DNA of 62,267 nt from a virus. Each line of letters opens with the position of its first letter. The first letter of the stretch is position 1. The notes under the pieces are model-generated. The model had not been told where the DNA came from and did not search any database. It was given only the letters and a program-made list of their open reading frames with translations. Shown here in pieces: positions 7,434 through 50,057 of the stretch. The stretch covers positions 1 through 62,267 of the IMG/VR virus record IMGVR_UViG_3300022902_000004; one strand, written 5' to 3'. A program made the translations under genes and the position numbers.

Positions 7434-7955
7434 CTAGTAATTTACACTGCCAATGACGTCTATTTGTCCTTTATATTTTTCTTTGAATGAATCCTTGAGA
7501 TGACCAATCTCCTCACGCATCATCTTCCCGAAATGAAGTATCTTCAGATCAGGATGCATATCGATCAGGCCTTGAATTAGTTTCCTGGCGTACCCTTTTC
7601 CACGCTGGTCGTTTCGCACATGGACATAGTCGAGATAGATTGATTGTTTATCTCCCCAATATGACCAATCCTGAAATGCAACCATATGATCCGGGCCGCC
7701 CTTGATAAACTCATCGATCACCGGCTTTTTGAGTTTTCGCCGTTTGGCGCCTCGGCCTGTATATTTCCGCCATATTGTGTAGTCGGTGTAATATGTCGAT
7801 TGCGGCGGTGCCAGCTCGGTTGATGTGTCAATCATCGCAACCCGATTTTTGTGGGCGTAACGACCGTATAGGAGTGGTGACTTACCCAAATCGGTAAACT
7901 TGGCGTTCTCGGTTAGAATGCCTTCAATGATTATTTCAAGTTGTTCTAGATTCAT
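7434..7955 (-). CDS. GNAT-like acetyltransferase with E-ending leader
   Basis: YVHVRNDQRGKGYARKLI acetyl-CoA motif; N-terminal EGILTE. Confidence 0.65.
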   Translation of the reverse strand: MNLEQLEIIIEGILTENAKFTDLGKSPLLYGRYAHKNRVAMIDTSTELAPPQSTYYTDYTIWRKYTGRGAKRRKLKKPVIDEFIKGGPDHMVAFQDWSYWGDKQSIYLDYVHVRNDQRGKGYARKLIQGLIDMHPDLKILHFGKMMREEIGHLKDSFKEKYKGQIDVIGSVNY

Positions 7956-9346
7956 GAGCGCCTCGACCAGTGTTGTGTATGTTTTCTATGTTCCTCATAT
8001 TCACTTCGACTCGGGCCGCCCTTACTTTCCGGTGTATCGAATCTTTGTTTTTTGTATTCCATAGATAGCTCAATGTATTGCGGCCTGATGATACCTTTGT
8101 ATGCGACCGTTCCACCGCTTGAGCCTGCAATACTTTTCTTCACCATGCTGGCAATCATGTTATGAACAGCGATTTCGAAAGCAGCAAGTTCAGGGGTGTC
8201 TTCATATACATTTCTGTGCAGGCTGTCCAGCACGCTTCGCGGATGAACGTTCTGAACGAGTTGTCCTGGTTCTAAATCGGTCCCGGGTATTGAAAACTCA
8301 CGTTTTATGTGCAATCGATATGGTCGATCTAGGCTCTCATAGCCCATTTGGTCCTCATCAGGACGTAACCTTGTATAGTCCGGCACGGTAACCCTTAGCA
8401 CGACCGCCGTGGAACGATTATTGATTGCTTGTCGTGTGGCGTAGTTCTCAGCTTCGGCATGTGATAAGGCAAGGTACACATTTTCATTGGAATAACCCGG
8501 AATCAAGTCACCGTACGATTCGCCCGTAGCACCCGGGCGCAATCCTTGCTTTTGAATCTTCTTCCAGAGTGTACCGCTGGTGCCATGAAACATGACGATT
8601 GGGGTTTTACCGGTCAAAGCCCCTGCAACCTCATCAGGACGACCCAGGACGTCCCCAATTGACATGTTTCGGTACTTTTCAGAACCTACAATCTGGAAAT
8701 CTTCCGTAACATCAGGATCTTTGCCCAAAAGGTACTTCAACATTTTCTGAAGCGGGCCCAGTTTTTCATCGAATGCGACATCACCGCTAGGGATTACATA
8801 TGCTCTGCCGGTCCTAACTTTTGCAGGGCGCCTGGTAAAGGTTCCCATGTAGTCGAGATTCATATCTATGACACGTTCTGTCTTGTCAACTCTTACGATT
8901 TTGGAAGTTGAGGCATATCCAACCTTTGTTTTGAATCGTTTTAGAGTTTTTGGAATGTCTTTGTATGATTTATATTTCGCGCGGAACCCTTTTCTATAGT
9001 TGTAGAGCGTGCGCGCGGACTCAACCTTTTCTTTTTCCACTGTAAAATAGCCGGCCTTGACCAGCTTCTTGGCGAGCTTTTTCTGTGCCTTACTCAGTTC
9101 GGCAACATATTTGCCACTCAGGTTACCAACCATGGCTTCCAGTGTTTGCGGGTCTTGCCTTTCAGAGTATGGAATGTCATTGCTAGCAGGCCCACCACGA
9201 CCTTTTGAACTGGCTGCCTCCAACGAGACATTCCCATTCATCCACATTCGTGCGTAATAAACGCGCCCATCCGGGACATCACCAAGCAGTGGCATATCTT
9301 TCAGCTCAACCAGAAGGGAGCGTACATATTGGCGTAACAATTCCAT
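7952..9346 (-). CDS. Protein with ADP-ribosyltransferase/Tpt1-like domain and E-ending leader
   Basis: MFHGTS..IQKQGLRP..NVYLA..AENYA..VVLRV..YKGIIRPQYI; N-terminal MELLRQYVRSLLVE. Confidence 0.6.
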   Translation of the reverse strand: MELLRQYVRSLLVELKDMPLLGDVPDGRVYYARMWMNGNVSLEAASSKGRGGPASNDIPYSERQDPQTLEAMVGNLSGKYVAELSKAQKKLAKKLVKAGYFTVEKEKVESARTLYNYRKGFRAKYKSYKDIPKTLKRFKTKVGYASTSKIVRVDKTERVIDMNLDYMGTFTRRPAKVRTGRAYVIPSGDVAFDEKLGPLQKMLKYLLGKDPDVTEDFQIVGSEKYRNMSIGDVLGRPDEVAGALTGKTPIVMFHGTSGTLWKKIQKQGLRPGATGESYGDLIPGYSNENVYLALSHAEAENYATRQAINNRSTAVVLRVTVPDYTRLRPDEDQMGYESLDRPYRLHIKREFSIPGTDLEPGQLVQNVHPRSVLDSLHRNVYEDTPELAAFEIAVHNMIASMVKKSIAGSSGGTVAYKGIIRPQYIELSMEYKKQRFDTPESKGGPSRSEYEEHRKHTQHWSRRS

Positions 9347-10225: not shown

Positions 10226-10302
10226 TGGTACGGGTGGAGGGACTTGCACCCACTGTCTTCCAGATATAAGCTGGGAGCATTTACTGCTTATGCTACACCC
10301 GC
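10226..10302 (-). tRNA. tRNA-Ile(UAU), copy 1
   Basis: Loop CTTATAT; T-loop TGCAAGT; CCA. Confidence 0.8.
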
Positions 10303-10659: not shown

Positions 10660-10739
10660 CGGCACCCTCGATTGGAGTCGAACCAACATGTATCCAGTTA
10701 CTCTTTCAACAGCTTAGGAGGCCGAGGAGATACGAAGGC
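10660..10739 (-). tRNA. Atypical tRNA-Arg(CCU)-like RNA without canonical D-arm
   Basis: Acceptor GCCTTCG/CGAGGGT, CGGC-CTCCTAA-GCTG, normal T-arm; D-loop-like TAACTGGATA lies 3' of anticodon arm. Confidence 0.6.
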
Positions 10740-15214: not shown

Positions 15215-15342
15215 TGTGAAGTGTGGGAATCGAACCCACAGGCGCTGCCGCTATTTGTTGCTAATTTTTTTATGTCGGCTTGCACGACTCTCCTACCAAG
15301 GTCAATTGGAATCGAACCAAAAACCCAGCCATTTCGCTTCAC
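15215..15342 (-). ncRNA. tRNA-like RNA with two T-arms
   Basis: GTGAAG/CTTCAC termini; TTGG-TTCGATT-CCAA and GTGGG-TTCGATT-CCCAC; no anticodon arm. Confidence 0.45.
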
Positions 15343-15536: not shown

Positions 15537-15689
15537 ATTGTGCACTCGGATTTGAACCGAGAGTGTGCTACTCCATCAACCTAGGTAGCACGGATGAGTT
15601 TCGCCATGAGGTTGTTGGTGACTGACTGGCTCAGCACCTTTCATGTTGGCTAGATCTTATCCCTGTATGCCAATTCCAGCATACACAAT
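15537..15689 (-). ncRNA. tRNA-Leu-like RNA with ~70-nt extended anticodon arm
   Basis: Acceptor ATTGTGT/GCACAAT, Leu-type D-arm, long hairpin instead of anticodon loop, variable stem GTGCTAC/GTAGCAC, T-arm; no CCA. Confidence 0.6.
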
Positions 15690-18590: not shown

Positions 18591-18679
18591 AAGAGTATTG
18601 AGTGAGAGGGATTTGAACCCCCGACCTCCGGCTGCATCACCGGTGTCCTATCCAGACTAAACCACCACCGCTTACTCTT
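18591..18679 (-). ncRNA. tRNA-like RNA with 6-nt anticodon loop and extended acceptor stem
   Basis: CCGGT-GATGCA-GCCGG; extension AAGAGTA/TACTCTT; no CCA. Confidence 0.5.
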
Positions 18680-21370: not shown

Positions 21371-22402
21371 CTAATTTCGGGTTCCTGCCTGAAACTCTTG
21401 AATGTAGTGTGTACGGGCAGCCGAAGCCACCTTCTTCGCAACATTTTTCCACTCAAAGGTCTCAGCCTCTTCAATCTCAACTGCACATTCACGCTGGACG
21501 TCTTGACATACCCACCTGAGGTAGTCGCCGACACTTCGCATGTTTGGCTCGAGACCAAGTTCAGCCAGGTATTCGAAACCTTGCTCCAAGCGTCGGGGTG
21601 TCACAGCAAACTCGAGGAACTCCTGGACGTTGGCAAGCTCTTCTGGCGTTGCCTGTACAGTTTTCTTGCTCTTCTGAGTCTTATGCTTCTCACCTTTCGT
21701 CTTGAAGAACAGGTCGGAGTTACCAAGTTGGTCACCAAGCGGAGTCCAGACTAATCCTTCTCCCATGCCTGCCAGCCCGAACAATGCGCCCCATGGGCAC
21801 AAAACCTCAACAGCTAGCGTCTTCTTCGTTGCCTCTTCTGCTGCCTTTGTGACAGAGTCAAGATCATCGAGGTCGACTTCAAGCTCAGCAGAACCTGCCT
21901 TCAGGATGCTGTAGATACTCACATCTTCGTAGTAGTCATGAAAGTTGAAAACCTCGAGGTAACGAGACTTCTCCCCTTCAGTGACAGCAGCCGCAAAGAT
22001 GACCCACTGTTTTACTGGGAGCTGGTTGATCGCCATTCCTTTTTGAACGCCGTTGCCAATCCACTCACCAAACAATGTCAATGTTGCGTCTTCATGCAGG
22101 TTGTACGCCACCCGAAATTGCTTTTCAAGTCCTCGAATGGATACCTGTACTGCAACATGGTGGACGAATGCAGCGAAACCGTTGTTATCATTTTGAAGTG
22201 ACAACACTGTGTTACGACTCTGAGGCACTAATCCCTCTTTCGTGCACGCGACACCGGCATTTGTTCCATGGAGCTTCACAGTTCCTTTGAACTTCGTCAC
22301 ACCTCGAACTTTGTATCGCTCAGGCACCTCGGGATCCTTGTTAACCTTTCGAACGTACCGAGACACCTGATATAAGGCGTCAACATGTGTATACTTTTTC
22401 AT
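21371..22402 (-). CDS. RNA ligase, Rnl2-like
   Basis: TVKLHGTN, QSRN, FGEWIG, GEGLVW, FKTKGEKH. Confidence 0.75.
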   Translation of the reverse strand: MKKYTHVDALYQVSRYVRKVNKDPEVPERYKVRGVTKFKGTVKLHGTNAGVACTKEGLVPQSRNTVLSLQNDNNGFAAFVHHVAVQVSIRGLEKQFRVAYNLHEDATLTLFGEWIGNGVQKGMAINQLPVKQWVIFAAAVTEGEKSRYLEVFNFHDYYEDVSIYSILKAGSAELEVDLDDLDSVTKAAEEATKKTLAVEVLCPWGALFGLAGMGEGLVWTPLGDQLGNSDLFFKTKGEKHKTQKSKKTVQATPEELANVQEFLEFAVTPRRLEQGFEYLAELGLEPNMRSVGDYLRWVCQDVQRECAVEIEEAETFEWKNVAKKVASAARTHYIQEFQAGTRN

Positions 22403-24033: not shown

Positions 24034-24110
24034 TGGTACGGGTGGAGGGACTTGCACCCACTATCTTCCAGATATAAGCTGGGAGCATTTACTGCTTATG
24101 CTACACCCGC
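24034..24110 (-). tRNA. tRNA-Ile(UAU), copy 2
   Basis: One-nucleotide difference from 10226-10302. Confidence 0.8.
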
Positions 24111-25278: not shown

Positions 25279-25441
25279 TCCGGGAAGCAGGATTCGAACC
25301 TGCGAACGGCTTCGCAGCGGCAGGTAATTAGTCTGCTTGCTAATCCGTCACTGATAGCATATGATTGCCCGACGTCAATTATATTGTATAGCAAAAAGTA
25401 TGTTATCTATCAGTTGCCTTAAGCCTCTCAGCCATTCCCGG
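25279..25441 (-). ncRNA. Class II tRNA-like RNA with ~49-nt anticodon insertion and enlarged variable arm
   Basis: CCGGGAA/TTCCCGG; ACTGATAG/CTATCAGT enclosing insert; perfect T-arm. Confidence 0.65.
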
Positions 25442-26350: not shown

Positions 26351-26457
26351 AATTAGGTGTGTGAGGGTGCGAGCCTCAGGGCGGCGTATACTTCCTTGTT
26401 CAATACCATATCGATGGTTGGACTCGAACCAACATCCCCACTTATGCACATCTAATT
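26351..26457 (-). ncRNA. Circularly permuted tRNA-like / YrlA-like RNA
   Basis: Terminal stem AATTAG/CTAATT enclosing T-arm, short hairpin, then D-like arm. Confidence 0.45.
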
Positions 26458-26533
26458 GGCTTACAAGGCGGGATTTGAACCCGCGACACCGAAGACCGTC
26501 GCCCTCAGCTCTACCTGACTGATTTACATGTAA
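26457..26533 (-). ncRNA. tRNA-like RNA with non-standard anticodon loop
   Basis: GAGGGC-GACG-GTCTTC arm; normal T-arm; GCCA. Confidence 0.5.
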
Positions 26534-26643
26534 GCAAGCAGTTTTCTGTCAAAATGCTTAGGACTCATCAACCTGTAGACCACCACGTTACCGATGGACC
26601 TGACGCTCGCAGCGCGCCTGTTGCACTTTGCAACTTCCTACAA

Positions 26644-28748: not shown

Positions 28749-28755
28749 GATCAGA

Positions 28756-28826
28756 ATGAAGCATCAGGACTTGAACCTGAGTCTCTGGGTGTATGTGCCC
28801 AGCGCGTGACCACTAGCTATACTTCA
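28756..28826 (-). ncRNA. tRNA-like RNA with 8-nt anticodon loop
   Basis: CTGGG-CACATACA-CCCAG; TGAAGTA/TGCTTCA; T-arm. Confidence 0.5.
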
Positions 28827-28935
28827 CTCTTTATTCTTGTTACGTAAAGAACCTGCATGCTTCGAAACTAGCAGACGACCTTGCTTATGTGTTAGCTCAC
28901 ACCTGGTTTTAGCATTGATGTGATGCAAGATATTG

Positions 28936-29024
28936 CGGAGCTGGGGACAGGATTCGAACCTGCGTTGTGGTTGCCCAACCGGATTACAAATCCGGTGCCT
29001 TCGACCATCTCGGCTCACCCCAGC
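28936..29024 (-). tRNA. tRNA-Thr(UGU) with long variable arm
   Basis: CCGGA-TTTGTAA-TCCGG; TTG-GGCAACCA-CAA extra arm. Confidence 0.8.
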
Positions 29025-29637
29025 GTCGTTTTTTCGTTACGAGCAACCTGTGTGCTCTAAAATAATTTCCTCCTTTTGGAGTAAGTCCCAGTGATAAGAG
29101 TGCTTGTCGGACAGTCGAATGTGATTCTAACGCAACAAGAAACTCTGCGTCAGTCGTTCGTTTTCGTATGCCATCCTTTCTTTTATTTCGACCTCGCCAT
29201 GTCTCGGTTAGAGCATGACAATTTGGACACAGAAGTTCCAAGTTTTCTCTATCATTATTTTGGTTGTTTCCATCAATATGTTCAATTTCTAATGGAATCA
29301 ACTCATCTTGCCATTTTTTGTTTTTGCAACGACGACAAGCATGCGCTTGCTCATCGAATATTCGCATACGCTGGCGCTTGGGTGGTAAACTATCGAAAGG
29401 TAGGTCGACATAATGTGCTATCCTATTTTCTCGATTTGTTTTTCCGCCTTTCACTGCACCTGCGCGTTGCGCATTAGTAGACGTGGTTCGCACCCGTCCT
29501 GTAAGCGATTGAGAAACCTTTTTATTGATTTCCTCCCTACTTTGTTTTGTTGAAAAACCTCTTGCGCACTTGGCACCACAGAATCGTCCGCTGCCATATT
29601 CACCTATATGCGTATCATTACAATTTTCACAATTCAT
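28984..29637 (-). CDS. HNH endonuclease
   Basis: LEIEHIDGNNQNNDRENLELLCPNCH; stop codon in tRNA-Thr anticodon loop. Confidence 0.85.
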   Translation of the reverse strand: MNCENCNDTHIGEYGSGRFCGAKCARGFSTKQSREEINKKVSQSLTGRVRTTSTNAQRAGAVKGGKTNRENRIAHYVDLPFDSLPPKRQRMRIFDEQAHACRRCKNKKWQDELIPLEIEHIDGNNQNNDRENLELLCPNCHALTETWRGRNKRKDGIRKRTTDAEFLVALESHSTVRQALLSLGLTPKGGNYFRAHRLLVTKKRRWGEPRWSKAPDL

Positions 29638-29687: not shown

Positions 29688-29821
29688 TGGTGGGTCCACC
29701 AGGACTCGAACCTGGAACCAACTCATTAATCTCGGAAAATCAGGTTCTGCCCCTTTTCCTGTTTTCACAGGTATCTATTTTTTCCCAAAGTGAGCTGCGC
29801 TACCAACTGCGCCATGGACCC
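29688..29821 (-). tRNA. tRNA-Lys(UUU) interrupted by 58-nt anticodon insertion (29729-29786)
   Basis: Removing the insert gives GCTCA-CTTTTAA-TGAGT; intact acceptor, D and T arms; ACCA. Confidence 0.8.
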
Positions 29822-33605: not shown

Positions 33606-33672
33606 TGGATGGGTGTCCAGGAGTCGAACCTGGCACGCTGGCTACGTGTTTCATCCAATAGAAACACACCCA
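33606..33672 (-). ncRNA. 67-nt compact tRNA-like RNA (GCC loop, UCCA end)
   Basis: TGGGTGT/ACACCCA; GTTTC/GAAAC; ACG-TAGCCAG-CGT; no variable loop. Confidence 0.55.
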
Positions 33673-33777
33673 TGCTTTTCTCTAAATTCAATTGTCAAAG
33701 TCGTTACGGGCGCGAAGCTCGTGTGTATAAATAGCATCATAACACGATTTTTGACAATTTACACTAATCTTTTTCAC

Positions 33778-34143
33778 TTATTTCTTTTCGCAGCCGAAAA
33801 CTGCACACTCCGTTCGGACAACCATACGGCTTACTGACGCGGTAATCACCTCAACATTTTCCGACGTCACAGCCGTGGTGACAGCTCGGTGAAGTGCCAC
33901 ATCACGGATGTCCTCTGCTCGAGGAAGACTGGCTACTGCAGAGAGCAGGCACCCGACAATAACTGATCCCTTGATCCATCTTGTATATTTTGTGCGTTCT
34001 TCAGCCCTGGTATCTTTGTTCCCCAGCACAATCAAAAGTGCGAAAAACGTAACGAAACAGGCAGTAGTGCCCAAAGCGGCACCCAGATGCACATTCTCCA
34101 TCCACGCCCAGAAAAAATTCTCGTCCAAAATATTCATACTCAT
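33778..34143 (-). CDS. Hypothetical membrane protein
   Basis: Two hydrophobic helices. Confidence 0.55.
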   Translation of the reverse strand: MSMNILDENFFWAWMENVHLGAALGTTACFVTFFALLIVLGNKDTRAEERTKYTRWIKGSVIVGCLLSAVASLPRAEDIRDVALHRAVTTAVTSENVEVITASVSRMVVRTECAVFGCEKK

Positions 34144-34832
34144 TCTCCCTTCGCCAAGTATGCCAGCTTCAAAAAGTCTGGTGCATCCCGGCATTCTGCA
34201 TATTCCTGATTCATTTCACGAATACAATTCATCCTACGCTCATCATCCAACCATGGCGTTTCATGGCACAGCCTAAGGATTTCTTCGTTGATGCTGTCGA
34301 AGGCTCGCTTCCGGAGCCATTTGGCGTGATTTGTTAGGTTGTTTACCAGAAGACGGTTTTCCAAAACAATCTTGCGGGCTTGCTTGAGTCCTTCGGCATC
34401 AAACCCAACCGTGTAATCACACTTCACCAGCCGACAGCGCATGGCACCGTACTTGTTCTGGGAATCATCGATGATGATGTAGGGAGATCCAATCTTGTCA
34501 TTGTCCTCTAGCCATCGGCGACATGGGTCGCCACCACCGGAGCAACAATCTGTCTGAAAGATGTCAATCGTGTGGGCATGACGGGAGCCCGCCGCCGCTA
34601 GAACTTCGCGCATCCTTTCAATTGTTCGACCATTCCATGCCGTGTTGAACACGATGACAGGATTGTGTGACCGAATGACCGTTGGTGCTGCAAAAACAGA
34701 AGCTGGTCGTCCAATGAAATCAAACAGGTTGTCGAGGTGCGCGACGTTCTCAGGAAGCATATGATCCTGGGTGTGGGTGTTGGCAACGCCATCGACATCG
34801 AGGAAGACGAACATGTCAGGCTTGTTATTCAT
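34140..34832 (-). CDS. HAD-family phosphatase (RNA-repair type)
   Basis: VFLDVDGV, IVFNTAW, YIIIDD. Confidence 0.75.
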   Translation of the reverse strand: MNNKPDMFVFLDVDGVANTHTQDHMLPENVAHLDNLFDFIGRPASVFAAPTVIRSHNPVIVFNTAWNGRTIERMREVLAAAGSRHAHTIDIFQTDCCSGGGDPCRRWLEDNDKIGSPYIIIDDSQNKYGAMRCRLVKCDYTVGFDAEGLKQARKIVLENRLLVNNLTNHAKWLRKRAFDSINEEILRLCHETPWLDDERRMNCIREMNQEYAECRDAPDFLKLAYLAKGE

Positions 34833-35726
34833 GGGTTCGGGTTCCTCGGGTGCTGCCCAAGTGGGGTGTCCTGCGAAACCGGCTCGATGTTGTTAAGGTG
34901 GTATCTCACAGTCCTGGCCTTTTGTATCGGTAGGGGACGACTTGGGTATTCCATCGTTTCACGCAGTTCAATATCAAACGTAAGCATGCCGTCTGGGTGC
35001 TGATTCACCTTGGTCACGATGCCAACATGGGCACCGCATGCGAGACCAATTTGATTGCCTTTCAGTCTAACCTTGTCGCCGACCGCAGGCCCGAGCGTGG
35101 TATATTCATGGATCCATTGCAGTGTTTCAGTCTTAGTCATCGGTGAGCACCTCTGGGAATTCCAGCATTTCAAGGTCGACGCCCTTCGCCACCTTGTCAA
35201 CAAACTGCCGGGTGCGCTTTGCCTCAATGATCGCATCAAGGAGATCCTGTAAGCAGTAGATCTTATTTCGATCACTTGGAGACAGAGCCTTGAATTCAGC
35301 TGTGTTGGCGTACAGGTATAAGCGTTGATCCTCATGCTCAATCTCTTCTAGGCTCTTTTTCATAATATCGTCGACAGTCATGTGATACCTCTGGTTTGGG
35401 TCACCACCATCCTGGCAACATATCCATTATACCATGCTTTTACGATGTTTACACATGAACGATGAGCATTCATGTGAATCTGGCACACATTATCGTGCTT
35501 TATTTCTAGCGTCTTCAAGCCGGGCCATGACTTCCATTTCTAAGTCGGGCCAGTCGTCATCAAATGGCATCGGCACCAGATTTCCAATTTCTTGCGAAAT
35601 AACCTGTGAAAGGCTATGCTCGTCCCAACTTGCCCATCCCGGCATAATAAGGACCTCATCAACAACCATCGCCGCCTCATCACCTGCAGGATCAGTTGTT
35701 ACATCGTTTTGTGATTTACGCAATAT

Positions 35727-40299: not shown

Positions 40300-41142
40300 C
40301 TATTCAACCAACTGCAATTGTTCAACAACCGGCTTTTCGGCATCAAAAACAACAGCCACACGATTTGTCACCGTCGTCAGCTTAGGCATACTCACATTAG
40401 CAATCCTGTGTCGCGTCACCTTTCCCTCAAGGAATGTGGCACGACCGTCCCCATCTTTGCACTTCGCCAAGATTTTTGCAATCGCGGCGTCACTGAGTTC
40501 CGCTTCATACGTCTCACGCTGAACATACGTTCCTCGCTTCCAGGCAACCTTCAAATCATTCCAGTTTACCTGGTGGTAGCCCATCAAGAGATCCTGCACC
40601 TGGCTCACGTTTTTGCCCTGAAGCTCCTTGTGGCTGAAGTAGTGGTTCGCCAGCATGCTTACGCTGTTCCTGGCTGCATCAAGCTCGCGCCAGATTAGCA
40701 CGTTGACGGCTTCATCCTTGCTTGGAACCTGAAATGCCCGGCAGTCGAACATTGCAATCGTTCCCGGATCTCTCTGCAACGCAGTCTCGCGGCAGTCATT
40801 GAAATAGCCTGTCGCCATCGACGCCAGAATCGATGTCATCTTTTGCACACGCCCATTGAGATAGATTTCTGATTTCGGCTTGTCCTGCAGGTAAATCAGG
40901 GTGATTTCATCAGACTGCGTGTAGCCAATCCTTGCGCCTGTCTGCTCAACAAGGTAATGCGTTGTTAACACCATCAAGTCGGTGAAACCCGCATCGAACG
41001 GCTTCTCCATGTTCTTGGTGAACTTGCTGAATCGCTTGCCATCCAGTCGAACCACCACCGGGATTCCCGGGATGAATGACCTCTTGGTCTCACGGGCCTC
41101 ATAACCCTTGATTCGATCTCCTAGTCCTGTTCCCTTACTCAT
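40300..41142 (-). CDS. thg1: Thg1-like protein (tRNA-His guanylyltransferase / 3'-5' polymerase)
   Basis: VVRLDGKRFSKFT, YTQSDEI, FDCR, WRELDA.RNS, KRG. Confidence 0.9.
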   Translation of the reverse strand: MSKGTGLGDRIKGYEARETKRSFIPGIPVVVRLDGKRFSKFTKNMEKPFDAGFTDLMVLTTHYLVEQTGARIGYTQSDEITLIYLQDKPKSEIYLNGRVQKMTSILASMATGYFNDCRETALQRDPGTIAMFDCRAFQVPSKDEAVNVLIWRELDAARNSVSMLANHYFSHKELQGKNVSQVQDLLMGYHQVNWNDLKVAWKRGTYVQRETYEAELSDAAIAKILAKCKDGDGRATFLEGKVTRHRIANVSMPKLTTVTNRVAVVFDAEKPVVEQLQLVE

Positions 41143-41429
41143 TTCGTCTCCTTTTTTAGTTTGCTCTTGCCCAAGTCGGATAGAAATCCGCGGACAATAT
41201 GTTTCTTGCGGTTTTTTGTGAAGGCCGTCGGCCGAGAGCGTCGCTTGTTTCCACGTCGTTCCTGGATGATTTTCTCGGCTCGACGCATCAGTTTTCGCCA
41301 TTTTCGCTTTGCAGCCCTGGCATCCTCAGGGGACATTTTCGCCAGTTCTTCTTTGATGTCACAATCAGGAAAAAGAACACCGGACTCAAGAGCTCCCATG
41401 CGCTCAAAAAATTGTCGATCAATTTTCAT
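41139..41429 (-). CDS. Hypothetical basic protein
   Basis: Overlaps thg1 start. Confidence 0.5.
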   Translation of the reverse strand: MKIDRQFFERMGALESGVLFPDCDIKEELAKMSPEDARAAKRKWRKLMRRAEKIIQERRGNKRRSRPTAFTKNRKKHIVRGFLSDLGKSKLKKETK

Positions 41430-41446
41430 TTTTCAGTCCTGTACAG

Positions 41447-41453
41447 ATATTTA
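41447..41453 (+). promoter_or_regulatory. ATAYTTA promoter-like motif (representative)
   Basis: 5 nt before ATG of a plus-strand gene; same motif on minus strand before more than 15 genes. Confidence 0.6.
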
Positions 41454-41458
41454 GATTC

Positions 41459-41851
41459 ATGCTACAACCACCACAAGCACATGAAGGCTTCGTTCCTGCT
41501 TACCAACGATCAGCGTTGCCATATGTAACGTCGTCGATTCTGGCATCATCTGGTTCAATTCACTCATACACATTTGATTATGTCACCAGGTTTTTTACTG
41601 TGAAAAACACAGGTGGAACTGACGGTGACACAATCAATGTGGCATTTACTAGCAACGGTTTTGAATCAGGCAATTCGTTTCGTCTCGTTCGTGGTGAGTC
41701 GTTCGACGAAGAAATTCGCTGCGTGAAATTGTTTGTGTCATGTTCCGCCGGTTCGTTAGTAAACTATGAACTCATTGCTGGTTTGACAAACATACCTTTC
41801 AAAAACTTCAACGTCCTCACAGGCTCTAATGGCTGGAAGGGCGTAGGCTAG
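41459..41851 (+). CDS. Hypothetical beta-rich protein (possibly virion-associated)
   Basis: Fills gap between minus-strand genes; own ATATTTA motif. Confidence 0.65.
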   Translation: MLQPPQAHEGFVPAYQRSALPYVTSSILASSGSIHSYTFDYVTRFFTVKNTGGTDGDTINVAFTSNGFESGNSFRLVRGESFDEEIRCVKLFVSCSAGSLVNYELIAGLTNIPFKNFNVLTGSNGWKGVG

Positions 41852-42243
41852 TCCTGCCAGCGGTCAATCATTCGCTGGATGGCGAATTCAGGAACATTGT
41901 GGGTATTCCGCTCGACAGCAACCTTGACATCGATCAACGGTAATACCTCGAACTGGACATCATATCCAAACTCGGCAGCCCGAGTCACGTATTCCTTATA
42001 GTCACGGTGTCGAACGTTGGTGTTGTCAACGATCACAGGCGAGAGCTCTTTCTCAAGAGAGTCCTCAAAGTTTGAAAGGTTCAACGAGTGATTCCGACCG
42101 AGCAGCTTCGGATTGAACTTGTACTCACCATCGACCATGAACAGGTCATCGGTCGAATGAATGATGCCCTCAGCAACAAGCTCACGAGCACGAGTCGACT
42201 TGCCTGAACCTGGGATTCCCCTCATAATAATGACACGCTTCAT
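41848..42243 (-). CDS. P-loop kinase, polynucleotide-kinase-like (AAA_33)
   Basis: MRGIPGSGKST, VIVDNTN, RNTHNVP. Confidence 0.85.
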   Translation of the reverse strand: MKRVIIMRGIPGSGKSTRARELVAEGIIHSTDDLFMVDGEYKFNPKLLGRNHSLNLSNFEDSLEKELSPVIVDNTNVRHRDYKEYVTRAAEFGYDVQFEVLPLIDVKVAVERNTHNVPEFAIQRMIDRWQD

Positions 42244-42265
42244 ACTCCCCTCCATTATGCTTCAA

Positions 42266-43417
42266 TTATATCATACGTGACGTCGTTTTACACGACCTCT
42301 TATGCTTTTCAAGCTCAGACGACACGATGTCGACAGACAAATCGTCCAACCATCGCATGTCAACCCGCTTGGGCAACGACGAATCTACTGCCAAACCGGA
42401 CAATGCATCCTTTTCGTCACGGAATTTCGACATCAACTCGTCAAACTTGACCTCACCGTTGCGGATGGCAAGAACATACGGGTTCGGGTCGTAAACGTGC
42501 AAATCGCCAGACTCGAAGATTGTGCGACAAGCGATGGTGAGACGCCACAAATGTGCAGCATGTTTCACATCGTACCCGATCTTCTTCTCCATCCCAGCCC
42601 GCTTCTTATTGCGACCCTTCTTCCAGGCATTGAACGATTTCCACTTGTCACGAGCCATATCGTACTGACGCTGCTTCTGAACGAAATCGATGAAGTTGGT
42701 TTCGTACCCCAGCAAATTGCATGCTGCAGTGAATTTCTCGTCAGTTCCTACGCCGACCTCAGCCAATTGCTTGTAAAGCTGGTCGTTGATAAAGATCTTC
42801 GTTGCCTCATCCACATCCTTGAAGTCGATGCACCAATGGTCAACCTGCTTCTTGGCAGCCCTGATGGCAGCCATGATTTGATCCTTTGGGTATGCATGTT
42901 GTGCTGGAAGACCAAACTCTTCTCGAGTCGGTTCGTGCTCCAATGGGTTCAGCAGCCACTTTCGATGTGTTTCGATGCGGTGTGCCTGAGATGTTGCATA
43001 CCCGATGAATGTGTGGAGGCACTTCTTCGTCAAAAAACGGTGCCGAACATTGCGGAGGTGGCGGCCAGCTGCTGTCGCGTAGATTACGTCTTCATCACGG
43101 GTAAACAGCACATCGAGGATGTTCGGGTTTGCACCGGCGGCCAAGGCCAAGAACTTCCTTACCTCGAAAACCGTCCCCTCCATCCCATGAAGCGAGGCGA
43201 CTTCTTTCAACGCAGGCGTCAGGTCGCCCCAAAACGATTCCTCGACAAGCAGTGCTTCCTGAACCTGCTCGATTGTTTTGGTGCCCATGTAGTATTCTTT
43301 TGGTGGAACCATAACACCCTTCACATCAAGATCTGACGTGGGCGTTTCCATTCCATACGCTCGGGATCCTGCTACCGTGAGGAGGATCGCATGCTTACGC
43401 AAATCGAAGTTTGTCAT
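42266..43417 (-). CDS. Pol-beta-superfamily nucleotidyltransferase
   Basis: GSRAYG..SDLDVKG, NPN, YDVKHAAHLWRL. Confidence 0.85.
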   Translation of the reverse strand: MTNFDLRKHAILLTVAGSRAYGMETPTSDLDVKGVMVPPKEYYMGTKTIEQVQEALLVEESFWGDLTPALKEVASLHGMEGTVFEVRKFLALAAGANPNILDVLFTRDEDVIYATAAGRHLRNVRHRFLTKKCLHTFIGYATSQAHRIETHRKWLLNPLEHEPTREEFGLPAQHAYPKDQIMAAIRAAKKQVDHWCIDFKDVDEATKIFINDQLYKQLAEVGVGTDEKFTAACNLLGYETNFIDFVQKQRQYDMARDKWKSFNAWKKGRNKKRAGMEKKIGYDVKHAAHLWRLTIACRTIFESGDLHVYDPNPYVLAIRNGEVKFDELMSKFRDEKDALSGLAVDSSLPKRVDMRWLDDLSVDIVSSELEKHKRSCKTTSRMI

Positions 43418-43481
43418 TTTTGACCTCTGTTCCTGTCACCGTTCCTGGCAACATGTCTATTGTATCACGCTTTTTTGATTC

Positions 43482-43979
43482 TTACACAGATCTGGCGAGG
43501 GTGTCAGCTCGTTTTAGCAACGTTGGCATTCGAAATGGACCGGCCATCGAGGCAACCAGTTCGGCAGCTTCTTCATTGTCAAACATGTTACCCGTTGATG
43601 TGATGTATATCGGTCGTGCATCACCCCTAGAGAGCGCAAAACCGTCGTCGTTTATGAACCTTGACTTTGCAACCCCAACAACCTCTGCCATTCCTGAGTG
43701 TGCATCGTAAAGATACCGGCCGAGTCCTGGCTTTTCACCAAGATCGACATATCCATCAATGACAATAACCTCTGGACAAAATCCAAATGCATCAATCACT
43801 TTTTCAATACATGGAAGTTCGCGCTTGTAGAACTCACCTGGAACATATTCACCGTACTCTGACGATTCCAGTCGACAGGTCACTTCCTGTTTCGCGACTT
43901 CGGAGTCCCAATTCTCAAACAGAACCCCTGCCACGATGGCATAGTCATCATAATACTGAACGTCTACTGCTAAAATCAT
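43482..43979 (-). CDS. nfi: Endonuclease V
   Basis: AVDVQY, YVPGEFYKRELP, IDGY, GVAKS, PTLLKRAD. Confidence 0.9.
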   Translation of the reverse strand: MILAVDVQYYDDYAIVAGVLFENWDSEVAKQEVTCRLESSEYGEYVPGEFYKRELPCIEKVIDAFGFCPEVIVIDGYVDLGEKPGLGRYLYDAHSGMAEVVGVAKSRFINDDGFALSRGDARPIYITSTGNMFDNEEAAELVASMAGPFRMPTLLKRADTLARSV

Positions 43980-44533
43980 GTTCGTTTGTCTCCAAAAACA
44001 ATCTCTTCAAAGGAGACCGGCCGAAATCCTCGTACGTCTTGACCAACATTGTAAATGTCGATGGGGGCGATAAATTCAGGCTCATTACGTCGTTTTGTCT
44101 TGTAGGCCGGAACCACTGTCCCCTTCTTCATGACTGTCCACTTATCGTGAACATGACCACAGAACGCGTAATCTTCGCCACCCAGGGCATGAATTGGATT
44201 ATGGACCAGTTCAATCGAACCATGCGGTGTTACTGTCACTATACGTTGGTGAACCTCGTGAAATACGTCAGCGAGCCCGGCAGTATAGTCGTGATTCCCC
44301 TGAATCAGGATGATTCGCCCATTCAGTTGCTTGACATACTCCGGGAGGTGCCGGCGGTTTCCCATGGCGACATCACCAAGATGGAATACGTCGTCATCAG
44401 GTCGCACGACCGCGTTCCAATTTGCAATCATCGATTCATTCATTTGATCGATATTGTAATACGGCCGATTGCAATACTTGATGATGTTCTTATGCGAAAA
44501 ATGTGTGTCGCTTGTATACCATGTTTTCTTCAT
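43976..44533 (-). CDS. Calcineurin-like metallophosphoesterase
   Basis: SDTHF, HLGD, GNHD, GHVH. Confidence 0.9.
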   Translation of the reverse strand: MKKTWYTSDTHFSHKNIIKYCNRPYYNIDQMNESMIANWNAVVRPDDDVFHLGDVAMGNRRHLPEYVKQLNGRIILIQGNHDYTAGLADVFHEVHQRIVTVTPHGSIELVHNPIHALGGEDYAFCGHVHDKWTVMKKGTVVPAYKTKRRNEPEFIAPIDIYNVGQDVRGFRPVSFEEIVFGDKRT

Positions 44534-44859
44534 ACTCTACTTTCCTAGTTTCTTCTTTTCTTTAGCGGCCTCACGGGCGATGAACCGATTAACCTTGCTT
44601 TGCTGAGCCGCAGTGGGAACCGGAATGATTGCCGTGAACAGGGCCATTCGAAGACCGCTGAACTCACCGAGGCTTGCAAACGTGAAACATGGCAGCTCAC
44701 TGTTCAGGTTGATTGCCGTGATTTTTCCCGTGGCGACTTCGCCGTTCGGGTACATATGGCACCAGACTTTTTGACCGACTTTCCAGCCTTCATACTCCTG
44801 AGGACCTTTCGGTGTGTCAATCTTCAGCTTTTTCTTGTTGGTTTTCATCGTGGTCCCCT

Positions 44860-45231
44860 TTATTCGCAAGCCTGCCATTTTTCAACGAACTGCACGAGCT
44901 TTAACAACTCAGCACATTCGGCGATACCAATCTCGGGTAGTTCCATCAAGAACTTCAACTTCAGGCCTTCCATGTCGACCTCGATTGCGTCGCTTTCGTC
45001 GCCCACTGTCTCAATGAGGAAAGACTTGACCCTAAAAAGCTGGGTTGGTTTGAGTGTATAACCCGAACTCGTTTGACCCATACGGTCTTCGATGATCATT
45101 TTTGCCTCACGAAGACCGTATGGGTGGTGAGTCCTCAGAACCTTGATTGCACCAATCTTTTTTGATGCAGCAAGCTGCGCATCGATGTCACGTAGGACTT
45201 TGTGGGGAACTCGAATAGTCGTAAGCATCAC
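44860..45231 (-). CDS. Ribosomal protein L7/L12 C-terminal-like domain protein
   Basis: KIGAIKVLR...GLREAKMIIE. Confidence 0.55.
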   Translation of the reverse strand: MMLTTIRVPHKVLRDIDAQLAASKKIGAIKVLRTHHPYGLREAKMIIEDRMGQTSSGYTLKPTQLFRVKSFLIETVGDESDAIEVDMEGLKLKFLMELPEIGIAECAELLKLVQFVEKWQACE

Positions 45232-45306
45232 AATCCTTGTTTATGTTCCGGCAGAGTAGCCACCGGAACATAAACATTATACCACGTTTAGAGGCCTTTT
45301 ACACGT

Positions 45307-46500
45307 TTAGTTTGTCTGTGACTTGTAGTAAGCCCGACAAACATTCCGGAAGTTGTTGATTCCACCCTCAGAAGGGGCATACAAATCATATAGCGACCAC
45401 CAACCGGCTTTGGCGCCAGTGTCCTGGCCTTCCTTCAGTTTCGCCAGGACTTCGTCAACCATCTCGTAAGCGGTTGTACGAATCTCCTCTGGGAGTGTAA
45501 TCAACATGTAATCAAGGCGGTCATTCTTGATGCAGTTCATCAGGTATTTGTAGCTCAGCTTCGACTTGACCATCTCGCCGATGTAGCTGATGTATTTGAA
45601 CTTGACACGGCGGCCTTCGCCATTACCGTTTGGAATCACGGCAACCCAGCCTTCCTGGTTTACGACGGATCGGTCGTTGATCTCGTCATGAAGTGTCTGG
45701 AGTGTCATGAACACAACGTCGACTGGTAGAATCACCTCAGGCAAGGCTTCGCAAATCGCATCACGGACCTCCGGGGTTGCCGGATTACCATCAGCATCAT
45801 ATGCCTCAAGCAGGAAAATCTGCTTTGCACCGGCATAATCGACATGGACAGTCGTCATCGGGTGAACGAACTCGCAAACCAACGACATCAAATCGAAACC
45901 CTTGTTTGCACATGTCACCCATGCTTCCTTGAAGTCATCCAACTCCATCAACTCGAGAGCACCGACAGCAGACGGGGTTCCCAGGCGACCACGAGTGGTG
46001 GTGCACAGCTTTCCGTCATGAATGAAGTACTCGATCATGTGACCGTCTTCCTTACGAGTGCAACGCAACTTGGTGTCACCCGACATCGAAGCCAGATTCT
46101 CCATGGAAGTCTCCGGGAGCTCACCCTGGTTGAAGAACTTCTCGAAGCCACGGGAGACGAGTGTCACACCCTCAACCTGGCCCGCAGTCTCATACGAGTA
46201 AACGACGCCACGAAGCAATCGCAACTCAGCGGACCAACCGTCAACCACCTCATGAAGGAGGTTGTGAGCAGTGGGGCTATAGTTGAGCAGAACAAGCTGG
46301 CGCTTCTCATCAATATCAAACCCGAGCAGCTTGCCTGCCTGGATACCCCACTTCGCATCGACACCGAGAAGCTCGCACAACTCATCGTCATGCTCACGCT
46401 TCACCTTGGCCCACAGATTCAGCTTATCATTCCGGTTCTTCATATGACCGGTCAGAAAGGCTACGAGACGAGGAAGCTTCATGGTAAATTCGGAATTCAT
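45307..46500 (-). CDS. RNA ligase, Rnl1-like (divergent)
   Basis: FEKFFN..E, KEDG, EGWV, VKFK. Confidence 0.75.
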   Translation of the reverse strand: MNSEFTMKLPRLVAFLTGHMKNRNDKLNLWAKVKREHDDELCELLGVDAKWGIQAGKLLGFDIDEKRQLVLLNYSPTAHNLLHEVVDGWSAELRLLRGVVYSYETAGQVEGVTLVSRGFEKFFNQGELPETSMENLASMSGDTKLRCTRKEDGHMIEYFIHDGKLCTTTRGRLGTPSAVGALELMELDDFKEAWVTCANKGFDLMSLVCEFVHPMTTVHVDYAGAKQIFLLEAYDADGNPATPEVRDAICEALPEVILPVDVVFMTLQTLHDEINDRSVVNQEGWVAVIPNGNGEGRRVKFKYISYIGEMVKSKLSYKYLMNCIKNDRLDYMLITLPEEIRTTAYEMVDEVLAKLKEGQDTGAKAGWWSLYDLYAPSEGGINNFRNVCRAYYKSQTN

Positions 46501-46900
46501 TTTATATCCTTTGCATTTAGAAACAGATTAGAAACATTTCGACTTTAGAACTTGTGCCCACCGACACCTTTGGTCTTCAACCACGCTTGGATTGCGACGA
46601 TATGATTACCGGCACGACCATTGAACTGCTGCTCCAGAACGTCGGAGTTAACCCATTTGTGGGAACCAATATTTGCAGCCAAGAATCCACCTTGTCCAGG
46701 AGGGTTGAGCCACACGATCATCTGCTCGTCGTTATAGACGGACATGGAATCCTCGATGTCGGTAATCCCCAGGCGATATTGGAACCCGTTCCCGGGTGTG
46801 TAGTTTTCAAACTTCATTGCACTCTCCTGACGTTCAATCCCTGCTCGGGTTGCCCCCGAGCACATACCCATTATACCACGATTTTCGGACTCTTACACGT

Positions 46901-47941
46901 TTATGGTTTAACCAATTTCCAAATTGAATCAACAAACGTCGATGGCTTGCCGTCCAGAAGGCTAAACAGTGGTCCCGGCTGCATCAGATTAAACTTGCTC
47001 ATTTTGATGATTACCATCGCCTGGTCCTTTCGTGACTCAGTCTTATGCAACTCAAGATGCTTGAAAAGGCGTTGATACCGAACCACCTCGCGCTCAAACT
47101 CGCGCTGTTGACGCTGGACCTGAGCTTTCAAATCGTCGAACAACTCATCAGGAAGCTCAGCGATCATTGCCTCGACGTTCTCGCCTGACGACAATGCTTC
47201 CCAGATACGTCGTGGTGACATATCGTGAACGAGACGATGCAGTTTTATGTACTCATCAAGCTTCACCTTAACCCGCGGGCCGTCTTCAAACATGATGACA
47301 TAGCCTTCGAAGTTGGACGTATCGCGTGGAAGATCTTTCAAGTCCTCTACAGTGAACACTTCTGGAGTCCGAAAAGGCAGCTCAGGAAAATCGGTTGCCT
47401 CATACTCAAGCCCTGACTCGGTGCAGATCGCGCCAATCAAAACGAGCTCCTCAACGTCGCCATAGTTTACGACGATCCTGTTGTCAGGGTAAATGATTTC
47501 GAAGAGGTACGTGATATGCCCGTGCATCTTTGGGACGGCATCTTTGTACTTCGTTCGAAGCATCTCGGTTGCCTTGATTGCCTGCTCTGACTCAAACGAC
47601 CCACGGGTAGAAATTGCCAGCCCGTCAGGAGTCGAGTATGAAATCCCGAGTGACCCATCCATTTTTTCAAATGCTTTGAATCGATCGCCGATTGGGAGAT
47701 CTGGCAAGGCAGGAGACTCATGCTCGCCAATGTTGAAAAACTTCTTGAATGGTCGTGCAACCACACGTCCGGTACCGTCAACAATCAGCCCACGGCAGGC
47801 CATCGTTGCCTCGTTCCATCGGCGCTCATACTGAACAGGCGGTGCATAATTCAGAACAAACAAATCGTATTTTGGGTGTGGACGACGGGTAATATATCCT
47901 GCGTCGATCTCAGACTGAATCAGTGGGTCCAACAAATCCAT
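46901..47941 (-). CDS. RNA ligase, T4 RnlA/Rnl1 family
   Basis: CRGLI..RPFKKFFN, EKMDGSLG, TRGSF, EGYV, VKVKLDEY. Confidence 0.9.
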   Translation of the reverse strand: MDLLDPLIQSEIDAGYITRRPHPKYDLFVLNYAPPVQYERRWNEATMACRGLIVDGTGRVVARPFKKFFNIGEHESPALPDLPIGDRFKAFEKMDGSLGISYSTPDGLAISTRGSFESEQAIKATEMLRTKYKDAVPKMHGHITYLFEIIYPDNRIVVNYGDVEELVLIGAICTESGLEYEATDFPELPFRTPEVFTVEDLKDLPRDTSNFEGYVIMFEDGPRVKVKLDEYIKLHRLVHDMSPRRIWEALSSGENVEAMIAELPDELFDDLKAQVQRQQREFEREVVRYQRLFKHLELHKTESRKDQAMVIIKMSKFNLMQPGPLFSLLDGKPSTFVDSIWKLVKP

Positions 47942-49050: not shown

Positions 49051-49389
49051 CTACTTGACGATAATCGTTTCAATATGTGCACCACGAGCTCGACGAATGC
49101 AATCCCATGTTTCACGGCAGTTATCAATTGGAAATGCGACACAAAGGTCAGCTCCCGAATCAACCATCTCTTGGTTTCTGACCGCTGTGGCCTTAGTCCC
49201 ATGGAGCGTAATTTCGGTCGGCCACTCTTCAATTTCAAGCCTGAGCTCATCGGCAATCTTTGGAACAAAATAACTTGAACCTGATACCACACCGCAAACG
49301 ATTGTCGTGCCCAATGGCAGCTTGACCAACTCGTCCCTAATCTTCTCTATATCTAGCCATTCAATAGAACCAGCCACGATAACTCTCAT
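49051..49389 (-). CDS. SLOG/DUF2493-family protein
   Basis: MRVIVAGS..RNQEMV..VAFP..T.DCIRRA. Confidence 0.75.
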   Translation of the reverse strand: MRVIVAGSIEWLDIEKIRDELVKLPLGTTIVCGVVSGSSYFVPKIADELRLEIEEWPTEITLHGTKATAVRNQEMVDSGADLCVAFPIDNCRETWDCIRRARGAHIETIIVK

Positions 49390-50057
49390 TTCTTCAATCC
49401 ATTTATGTTGAAAATCGCTGTAATTGCTTCTGCGATTTTTTCCGCGACCTGCATATGCTCAAGCTGGGTGCCGCTTCCCTCACCTCTGACCTCGAGGTAG
49501 TGAATCCACGATCTGACTGAGCCTTTCATGAACAGTCGTGATTTTGTTAGTCCTTCCGGAAGTAACTTTCTTGCAACTTCCTTTGCGATGCCTGCGTCGA
49601 TTGCCCACTCGTATGCCTTCAGCGCTTCGCCGGCCACGTATTTTTGGCGGACATCCCACTGAGCTGACAACACCGGATCATCCGTCGCAACAGAATTCTG
49701 CCTGTTTTTCGTGTCCTGCAATCGAGGCTCGCAGAATTCAAATGTCTCGTTCCCGAATTCTGCAACGTTTGCATAGCGCTGGCTAAACTCTTGGAAACTG
49801 AATGACCTATGACGTAACATCTGTCGAGCGATGTCCCGGGTGGTTTCAATTTCCAACGTGATGTCGGCCATTTCAAAAGGTGACCAATGACGGTGTGCCA
49901 TCAGGAACTTGATTAGCTTCCGCGATGTTTTCACGTTCATTTGATTGGCCGGATTGGAAACCCGGGCACAATATGCAATTAGTCCTTCAACCCCATCGAT
50001 TCCGACTTCTTTCAGGCCATCCACAACCTGCGTATACGAAACTAACTTGACGTTCAT
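49386..50057 (-). CDS. thyX: Flavin-dependent thymidylate synthase
   Basis: HWSPFE, RHRSFSFQEFSQRY, KEVAR. Confidence 0.95.
   Translation of the reverse strand: MNVKLVSYTQVVDGLKEVGIDGVEGLIAYCARVSNPANQMNVKTSRKLIKFLMAHRHWSPFEMADITLEIETTRDIARQMLRHRSFSFQEFSQRYANVAEFGNETFEFCEPRLQDTKNRQNSVATDDPVLSAQWDVRQKYVAGEALKAYEWAIDAGIAKEVARKLLPEGLTKSRLFMKGSVRSWIHYLEVRGEGSGTQLEHMQVAEKIAEAITAIFNINGLKK

Follow-up and report, generated by a model that had tools for sequence, protein, structure and literature searches.

The first 62 kb of a 318,267-base-pair (bp) virus record in IMG/VR (IMGVR_UViG_3300022902_000004), analyzed here as one stretch of 62,267 nucleotides (nt) that is termed the window, contain a lysine transfer RNA (tRNA) gene, tRNA-Lys(UUU), whose anticodon loop is interrupted by 58 nt. 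These 58 nt are probably an intron that is removed by a route new for bacteria and their viruses. The record, which CheckV rated as 93% complete, belongs to a marine jumbo phage with a GC content of 46%; Logan runs place its source environment in marine and seawater metagenomes, and its gene content, which includes sigma-70 and GroEL, points to a bacterial host. All genes in the described part of the window lie on the minus strand.

An initial annotation, made from the sequence alone, had described an intact tRNA body split by 58 nt at positions 29729-29786, and this description was confirmed by covariance searching, by ARAGORN, and by removal of the insert in silico. The Rfam tRNA model RF00005 matched the locus from end to end with 56.4 bits (cut-off 29), placing a 61-nt insertion state in the anticodon loop. 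ARAGORN with introns allowed (-i) called a tRNA-Lys(ttt) with a 58-nt intron, i(36,58), and deletion of the insert left a 76-nt tRNA that plain ARAGORN called Lys(UUU), with the canonical 7-nt loop CUUUUAA. The acceptor stem comprises 7 bp (GGGUCCA/UGGACCC), the D and T arms are standard, the variable loop has 5 nt, the discriminator is A73, and the CCA end is encoded. The anticodon stem of 5 bp (GCUCA/UGAGU) encloses a loop that is split into CUUU, the 58 nt, and UAA. The position of the junction (marked here by a caret) is uncertain by a single U, such that the insert lies either after U35 (CUUU^GGG..GAGAU^UAA) or after U34 (CUU^UGGG..GAGA^UUAA). The predicted spliced junction is CTCACTTTTAATGAG, and the 31-mer across it contains GCAGCTCACTTTTAATGAGTTGGTT.

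As befits a tRNA-Lys(UUU), the joined exons display the full cloverleaf together with its conserved tertiary nucleotides, and their 7-nt loop has U33, with a purine following at position 37. A loop of the Gln(UUG) type, which is the product of other boundaries, was considered and rejected since G1-C72, A73, and the homologues favor Lys; the misfit of G1-C72 and A73 with Gln(UUG) rests on established tRNA identity rules. Similarity in the tRNA body is no guide to amino-acid identity in this case, because the 29-nt end of the gene (variable loop, T arm, and acceptor; 29688-29716, minus strand) is identical in tRNA(CAU) genes on unrelated metagenome contigs (L010, L012-L015, L017, L018, and L020), and because the GenBank phage tRNAs nearest to the joined exons (77-79% identity) are annotated as Met or Asn. 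A scan of metagenomes with the 3' exon returned two insert-bearing lineages along with unrelated bacterial tRNA(CAU) genes; in the latter, the matching T arm and acceptor were ascribed to chance or convergence.

About 40 tRNAs that cover all amino acids are encoded in the record. Gln, Glu, and Leu each have both a UNN and a CNN isoacceptor, whereas the sole uninterrupted tRNA for Lys is that with CUU, and the split gene is therefore the missing U34 Lys partner. Lysine codons number 39.8 (AAA) versus 31.9 (AAG) per 1000. That no other Lys(UUU) gene is present, as first noted for the window, holds for the whole 318-kb record; a further ARAGORN "Lys(ttt)" call (26457-26590) has a poor cloverleaf and, like intron calls at 25279-25441, 33606-35536, and 253806-254658 with the same defect, was not accepted as an intron.

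The large terminase (L025) was used to retrieve 80 related IMG/VR records (51-94% identity), the larger of which were searched. One relative (G009; 58% terminase identity) encodes a homologous but uninterrupted tRNA-Lys(UUU) (L106:1467-1540). The D arm and variable loop of the two genes are nearly alike, while the acceptor, anticodon, and T stems differ yet still pair, and the alignment gap between them is exactly 58 nt and falls between CTT and TTAA. Another lineage (G004, G007, and G010; 57% terminase identity) carries three group I introns in its tRNA array, which the Rfam model RF00028 detected at 70.2, 62.6, and 49.2 bits. The lowest of these scores (E 9e-12) is that of the intron in Lys(UUU), with its siblings in Leu(UAA) and Arg(UCU) at 62.6-70.2 bits. 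The Lys(UUU) intron is located at the CUUU^UAA site, is 198 nt long, and ends in ..GGTACG, that is, with a terminal G; its 5' exon ends in ..GGACTTT, its 3' exon starts with TAATCCG, and joining the two results in a Lys(UUU) call. It should be noted that ARAGORN labels this gene, in its split form, wrongly as SeC(tca). Judged by sequence comparison, related phages hold one gene and one site in three states, namely empty, occupied by a self-splicing intron, and occupied by the 58-nt insert. Given the group I allele in a relative, an interrupted Lys gene at CUUU^UAA should be workable in this clade if the insert is spliced out.

Five other relatives yielded 0-9 tRNA matches each, none with an insert, and a covariance model of the arm plus insert was without a match in 34 related phage records. 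When aligned locally with each of the relative's three group I introns, the 58 nt scored no higher than the shuffle mean. Among the records compared, the mini-insert is thus restricted to a single sub-lineage, and nothing visible marks it as having arisen from the group I intron by deletion. In IMG/VR, exact sub-patterns of the insert and of the neighboring tRNA-Lys(CUU) had L002 (see below) as their sole match and no empty allele with the same anticodon stem was present, nor was a similar locus found among GenBank phages. Chance accounts for four GTDB matches to a 20-mer of the insert and also for a match of 22 nt, within coding sequence, in L110, which is the nearest complete relative.

Within that sub-lineage the gene is strongly conserved. 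It is present in three contig lineages: that of the window phage, L002/L016 (IMGVR_UViG_3300031603_000435, the same as Ga0307989_1001286), and L011/L019 (Ga0098052_1004447 and Ga0208299_1058257). These share a syntenic tRNA array (His, Lys(UUU) with insert, Thr, Val, Lys(CUU), Gly, Pro, Pro, Ile, etc.), and the sister contigs are 70-95% identical to the window at the DNA level and unalignable in places. Among the three lineages, the split tRNA-Lys gene is 99.3-100% identical, the only change being a G/A difference in the D loop, and the insert is identical at 58/58 positions. Identity is 59-100% for eight other syntenic tRNAs, 59-70% for the tRNA-Thr that lies 3 nt downstream of tRNA-Lys in the sister lineages, and 50-90% for the upstream 200 nt. 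At the mildest local divergence (9.5%), the chance that all 58 nt would be unchanged is approximately 0.003, and the pattern as a whole indicates that the split gene is under strong purifying selection. Logan contigs from three further runs (2012, 2016, and 2020; different studies) bridge both junctions, with no differences or with a difference at the D-loop site only, and no joint indicating an insert-free allele in these populations was found among the contigs of these runs.

Folds were predicted with the cloverleaf enforced and for the arm alone (positions and pair probabilities in Table 1). In these predictions, U33, U34, and U35 pair with A57, G56, and A55 of the insert as a 3-bp helix, and the anticodon is thereby predicted to be masked by pairing with the 3' end of the intron. 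An asymmetric loop (C32 versus U58, U36, A37, and A38) would separate this helix from the anticodon stem, and a G.G mismatch would separate it from a 6-bp stem (GGAAAA/UUUUCC) that closes a three-way junction, which is predicted to hold two hairpins, the very stable CCUGU-GAAA-ACAGG and a weak GGG/CCU. The two splice junctions would then be on opposite strands, at either end of the 3-bp anticodon-intron helix. The fold-back noticed in the initial annotation was reproduced, although a more accurate description of its inner hairpin, given there as CCTG-TGAAAA-CAGG, is a 5-bp stem (CCUGU/ACAGG) that ends in a GAAA tetraloop. The insert also contains GAACCUG, complementary over 7 nt to CAGGUUC of the T arm (listed as 29736-29742 with 29766-29772, minus strand). 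This pairing disrupts the T arm in the unconstrained free-energy minimum, and the T stem has a probability of approximately 4% in the precursor ensemble. Since complementarity of this kind arises in 11% of shuffles, the pairing could be an alternative fold of the modeled precursor or chance, and it is not used here as support.

Known types of insert were examined in turn. Apart from tRNA, no Rfam family matched the locus even at E<=10 on 171 nt, and RF00028 detected no group I core (P3-P9), whether at E<=10 for the locus or at E<=0.001 across the entire record. The same model does detect the three introns in relatives. A group I intron is further contradicted by the ends of the insert (..GAGAU or ..GAGA), which lack an omega-G under either Lys-restoring boundary, whereas the intron of the relative ends in ..GGUACG. 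A U34.G56 wobble is predicted, and it would be at the splice site only with the CUU^U boundary, with its pairing strand at the 3' end of the insert. A bulge-helix-bulge (BHB) motif was rejected on the basis of the predicted fold, in which the 3-bp helix is bounded at one end by a 1x1 G.G mismatch and at its other end by an asymmetric 1-nt/4-nt loop. A tRNA-shaped insert was likewise rejected, as RF00005 did not match inside the insert at E<=10 and the T-loop motif (GTTCRANYC) is absent from it; because a 5-nt tail follows the closing stem, exon 2 would retain 4 surplus nt after a cut of the RNase Z type. None of the families of small self-cleaving ribozymes (hammerhead, twister, twister-sister, pistol, hatchet, HDV-like, and hairpin) matched at E<=10 on the 171 nt, and hand threading of the insert onto HDV-like and hammerhead cores failed. 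Finally, a miniature transposable or repeat element does not fit an insert that is single-copy in 318 kb, with an inverted repeat that is subterminal at the 3' side and a junction ambiguity of 1 nt.

On balance, it is somewhat more likely than not that the insert is removed from the RNA by some route, with about two thirds of that likelihood falling to a protein route. That the insert is a real intron, cut by a nuclease of the phage or host and sealed by a phage ligase of the Rnl1 or Rnl2 type, is a serious possibility, if somewhat short of an even one. In this proposal, the complete tRNA body would form in the transcript, with U33-U35 paired to the GAG at the intron 3' end, and an endonuclease of the phage or host would cut both junctions flanking the 3-bp anticodon-intron helix. 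Should the cuts leave 5'-OH and cyclic phosphate ends, the kinase and phosphoesterases of the phage would heal them, and a nucleotide that had been lost may be replaced by RlaP. Rnl1-family enzymes repair nicks within the anticodon loop, and the resulting nick would be sealed by a phage ligase of the Rnl1 or Rnl2 type. The product would be a normal tRNA-Lys with the loop CUUUUAA that decodes AAA, the commoner Lys codon of the phage. More speculatively, the insert may, at the level of DNA, disrupt the target of a homing endonuclease, genes of this type being abundant in the array, and, at the level of RNA, hide an anticodon that is attacked by many host nucleases. We infer every catalytic step, which nuclease acts, and any advantage gained by hiding the anticodon or by losing a homing target; the full combination, in which a masking, non-ribozyme intron is excised by a dedicated nuclease, resealed by a phage ligase, and kept as a shield from both homing endonucleases and host anticodon nucleases, is best regarded as tentative and doubtful as a whole.

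The enzymes for healing and sealing are at hand. The richness in RNA ligases stated in the initial annotation was borne out, with three Rnl2-family and two Rnl1-family genes, four of these five being in the window. A compact RNA-repair operon (40300-47941, minus strand) encodes a Thg1-like enzyme, a kinase, RlaP, an EndoV-like protein, a calcineurin-like phosphoesterase, and two Rnl1-like ligases. The EndoV-family member is unusual in such a cluster and could be a candidate RNA nuclease. This kit makes sealing possible and does not point to splicing.

Several observations weigh against excision by such a route. Ligase and repair kits are usual in tRNA-rich jumbo phages, where they are read as repair of host-inflicted tRNA cuts (Iyer et al., PMC7824862), and, being a general trait of these phages, the kit is not specific evidence for splicing (PMC7824862). 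EndA (PF01974) and RtcB (PF01139) are absent from the 93%-complete phage record, in searches that detected positive controls, as are the RNase III and RNase Z-type families, and Pfam scans of 70 window open reading frames (ORFs) yielded no RNA endonuclease candidate besides the EndoV-like gene. Hand threading found no register with the Lys boundaries for the two 3-nt bulges 4 bp apart of a BHB, such that the single well-understood route of protein splicing does not apply. The predicted fold is only moderately unusual in energy (z of approximately -2.5 versus dinucleotide shuffles) and cannot be supported by covariation, since the insert is invariant in all lineages; of the two outcomes sought by aligning homologs, an empty allele was found and covariation in the insert was not, there being zero variation. 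Moreover, at least eight tRNA-like elements with aberrant anticodon arms are present in the window, showing that non-decoding look-alikes recur there. Of the ideas offered in the initial annotation, which were protein-dependent splicing, a masked tRNA, and a decoy, the shared parts are supported: the gene is real, is under selection, is not interrupted by a group I intron, and is accompanied by a heal-and-seal kit. As to the splicing reading itself, no splicing nuclease was found in the scans and the kit is not specific.

The recurrence of such elements lends some weight to the view that the RNA is never spliced and instead acts as a tRNA-shaped molecule with a long, branched anticodon arm, serving as a decoy or sponge for a host tRNA-Lys nuclease or a tRNA-binding defense protein, or as a regulator. 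The invariance of all 58 nt would fit a specific binding surface, the loop residues that flank the insert would persist by descent alone, and the scans of the phage record found no excision nuclease. However, the anticodon is predicted to be base-paired and hence would not be displayed to a nuclease. The phage would then be without a U34 Lys isoacceptor, although all others are present and AAA is its commoner Lys codon, and the relatives retain the gene as a working tRNA that is either empty or equipped with a self-splicing intron. An unspliced look-alike is therefore tenable but rather unlikely, and an intron is favored over a decoy because of the empty allele, the group I intron at the identical site, and the U34 isoacceptor as the sole one missing.

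Improbable, though worth stating, is a new small catalytic RNA that cleaves itself at one or both junctions, alone or on the tRNA scaffold, with a ligase or the reverse reaction joining the exons. A length of 58 nt is within the size range of small self-cleaving ribozymes, invariance of every nucleotide goes beyond the needs of a simple hairpin, the predicted fold has a three-way junction with a GNRA loop, and a ribozyme intron occupies the same site in relatives. Set against this are the failure of the ribozyme and group I models and of hand threading, as described above, the isolation of the arm covariance model among the 34 related records, and the need for two cuts in order to excise the insert. 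To the best of the authors' knowledge, no known 58-nt ribozyme makes two cuts.

A dead relic, in which an internal deletion would have reduced a larger intron (for instance, the group I intron of the relatives) to these 58 nt in a gene that no longer yields a tRNA, is very unlikely: the related intron at the identical site and the lack of any remaining group I intron in the phage's own genome would suit this view, but the insert aligns to the three group I introns no better than shuffled sequence does, ends in U or A rather than G, and belongs to a gene kept at 99-100% identity in three lineages while its neighbors drift to 60-90%. An assembly or chimera artefact has virtually no chance of being correct, with nothing found in its favor and the same sequence recovered from different samples, taken in different years, in contigs of IMG/VR, JGI metagenomes, and Logan. 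The near-identical gene in three lineages and in independent assemblies sets aside both an artefact and a decaying pseudogene.

Table 1. Positions of the split tRNA-Lys(UUU) gene, of its predicted structural elements, and of other features discussed in the text. Positions refer to the window unless a contig is named.
Feature	Position	Strand	Basis or remark
Intron-containing tRNA-Lys(UUU) gene, 134 nt including encoded ACCA	29821..29688	minus	RF00005 and ARAGORN
5' exon: acceptor strand, D arm, anticodon-stem 5' strand, C32 U33 U34 U35	29787..29821	minus	Sequence; aligns with uninterrupted tRNA-Lys of relative
58-nt insert (mini-intron)	29729..29786	minus	Sequence, ARAGORN, gap versus empty allele
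3' exon: U36 A37 A38, anticodon-stem 3' strand, variable loop, T arm, acceptor strand, ACCA	29688..29728	minus	
Intron A55 G56 A57, predicted to pair with U35 U34 U33 (29787-29789)	29730..29732	minus	Folds; pair probabilities 0.65-0.74
Intron body, predicted 6-bp closing stem (29780-29785 with 29734-29739) around three-way junction	29734..29785	minus	Probabilities 0.5-0.79
Predicted hairpin CCUGU-GAAA-ACAGG, GNRA tetraloop	29758..29771	minus	Pair probabilities 0.98-1.0
ORF-less group I introns (198-237 nt) in Lys(UUU), Leu(UAA), Arg(UCU) of relative	L126:184-457, 805-1128, 1435-1716	minus (184-457)	Also in G004, G007
Free-standing HNH endonuclease gene	28984..29637	minus	Pfam HNH E 1.6e-4; 51 nt downstream of split tRNA
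Rnl1-family RNA ligases (two), candidate sealers	45307-46500, 46901-47941	minus	PF09511 E 5.8e-11, 2.3e-15
Rnl2-family RNA ligase inside tRNA array	21371..22402	minus	PF09414
Further Rnl2-family ligases	4445-5104; third at 309.7 kb of record		PF09414
Thg1-like enzyme	40300-41301	minus	Pfam
AAA_33 kinase	41848-42255	minus	Pfam
RlaP nucleotidyltransferase	42266-43417	minus	Pfam
EndoV-like gene	43482-43979	minus	Pfam
Calcineurin-like phosphoesterase	43976-44533	minus	Pfam
HAD phosphatase, "Swiss Army Knife" RNA-repair family	34140..34832	minus	PF18143 E 1.6e-11
Perfect T-arm motifs (eight), first four	10671-10687, 15223-15239, 15545-15561, 18606-18622	minus	Outside called tRNAs
Perfect T-arm motifs (eight), last four	25287-25303, 26417-26433, 26468-26484, 33617-33633	minus	Outside called tRNAs
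PARP-like, ThyX, sigma-70-family, GroEL-type (listed jointly)	7952-9346, 49386-50057, 59255-59974, 60194-61807	minus	

The tRNA array is rich in free-standing genes of the HNH, GIY-YIG, and endonuclease-I/VII-like types. The HNH gene next to the split tRNA is absent from that place in both sister lineages, where (in L002 and L011) tRNA-Thr follows within 3 nt of tRNA-Lys. In the window, the HNH open frame (28984-29637) extends into the downstream tRNA-Thr(UGU) (28937-29024, minus strand), which is 88 nt long; the sister lineages, which lack the HNH gene, have a tRNA-Thr of 75-76 nt that is only approximately 60% identical to it. A nearby tRNA (28754-28827, minus strand) has an 8-nt anticodon loop that ARAGORN reads as "cata", and the 94.5%-identical stretch of L002 is called tRNA-Phe(GAA). 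Two genes (10226-10302 and 24034-24110, minus strand) encode tRNA-Ile(UAU), an uncommon isoacceptor, and two CAU tRNAs are present besides. Several of the eight elements with a perfect T-arm motif have acceptor-like ends and aberrant or missing anticodon arms, such as a mini tRNA-like RNA that ends near position 33606; collectively, they look like a panel of tRNA look-alikes within the array. The minus strand of the window also encodes a protein with a PARP-like domain, the flavin-dependent thymidylate synthase ThyX, a sigma-70-family factor, and a GroEL-type chaperonin.

To the best of the authors' knowledge, protein-dependent tRNA splicing is textbook for archaea and eukaryotes and is deemed absent in bacteria and phages, whose tRNA introns are self-splicing group I introns. 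The latter interrupt the anticodon loop of tRNA-Leu(UAA) in cyanobacteria and plastids and that of tRNA-Ile and tRNA-Arg in proteobacteria. The insert resembles them in that a related phage has such an intron in the same gene and at the same CUUU^UAA point, in that the end of the 5' exon is predicted to pair with a purine-rich intron segment, and in that neither contains an ORF; U34 could form a U.G wobble with that segment. It differs in its size (58 nt versus a minimum of approximately 190 nt), in lacking a P3-P9 core, a terminal G, and sequence similarity, and in having its exon-pairing segment at the intron 3' end and not just after a P1 loop. In archaeal and eukaryal tRNA introns, a BHB is cut by EndA or TSEN and the exons are sealed by RtcB or Trl1. 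The pairing between anticodon and intron and the location of the junctions on opposite strands across a short helix, both predicted here, are shared with these introns, and the phage has stand-alone counterparts of Trl1 in the form of an Rnl1-type ligase, a kinase, and phosphoesterases. Unlike those introns, however, the insert has no 3-nt bulges 4 bp apart and is located at position 35/36 (or 34/35) rather than 37/38, and it occurs in a phage record without EndA or RtcB and with a bacterial host indicated. The repair of PrrC-cleaved tRNA-Lys by T4 Pnkp and Rnl1 involves the same tRNA and a nick in the anticodon loop, and homologous classes of healing and sealing enzymes are encoded near the split gene; in T4, however, what is mended is damage, and no insert encoded in the genome is taken out. 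No PrrC-type nuclease was found in the present analysis, in which no search aimed at one was made, and a link to PrrC is conjectural.

The closest precedent is found in Lak megaphages, whose tRNAs have "enigmatic" introns that are identical in sequence across cohorts, one of which is itself a predicted tRNA (Devoto et al. 2019, PMC6784885). Like the insert described here, these are short, ribozyme-less inserts in the anticodon loops of huge-phage tRNA genes that are identical across populations (PMC6784885). In contrast to it, a Lak example used for comparison is 93 nt long with a T-arm-like GGTTCGAATCC hairpin, whereas the present insert has 58 nt and no tRNA-like fold, and the host and phage lineage are unrelated (marine and 46% GC in this case). 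A search of the literature found no report of a mechanism or of a 58-nt branched tRNA-Lys insert, and the sole published account of short, ribozyme-less phage tRNA inserts is that of the enigmatic introns in Lak phages (PMC6784885). What is new here, as far as the genomes compared reveal it, is the uninterrupted tRNA-Lys(UUU) in a terminase-related phage and the 198-nt group I intron at the same site in another.

The particular value of this case is that related phages provide a natural series of three states at a single phosphodiester, which makes the question of how the insert is handled directly testable. Bacterial anticodon nucleases (PrrC, PARIS, and others) favor tRNA-Lys(UUU) as a target, and a precursor whose anticodon is hidden until it is processed would accordingly be a new idea in counter-defense. 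If the proposed removal of the insert is true, enzymatic tRNA splicing would occur outside of archaea and eukaryotes, and the 58 nt would represent a new kind of intron for the bacterial world.
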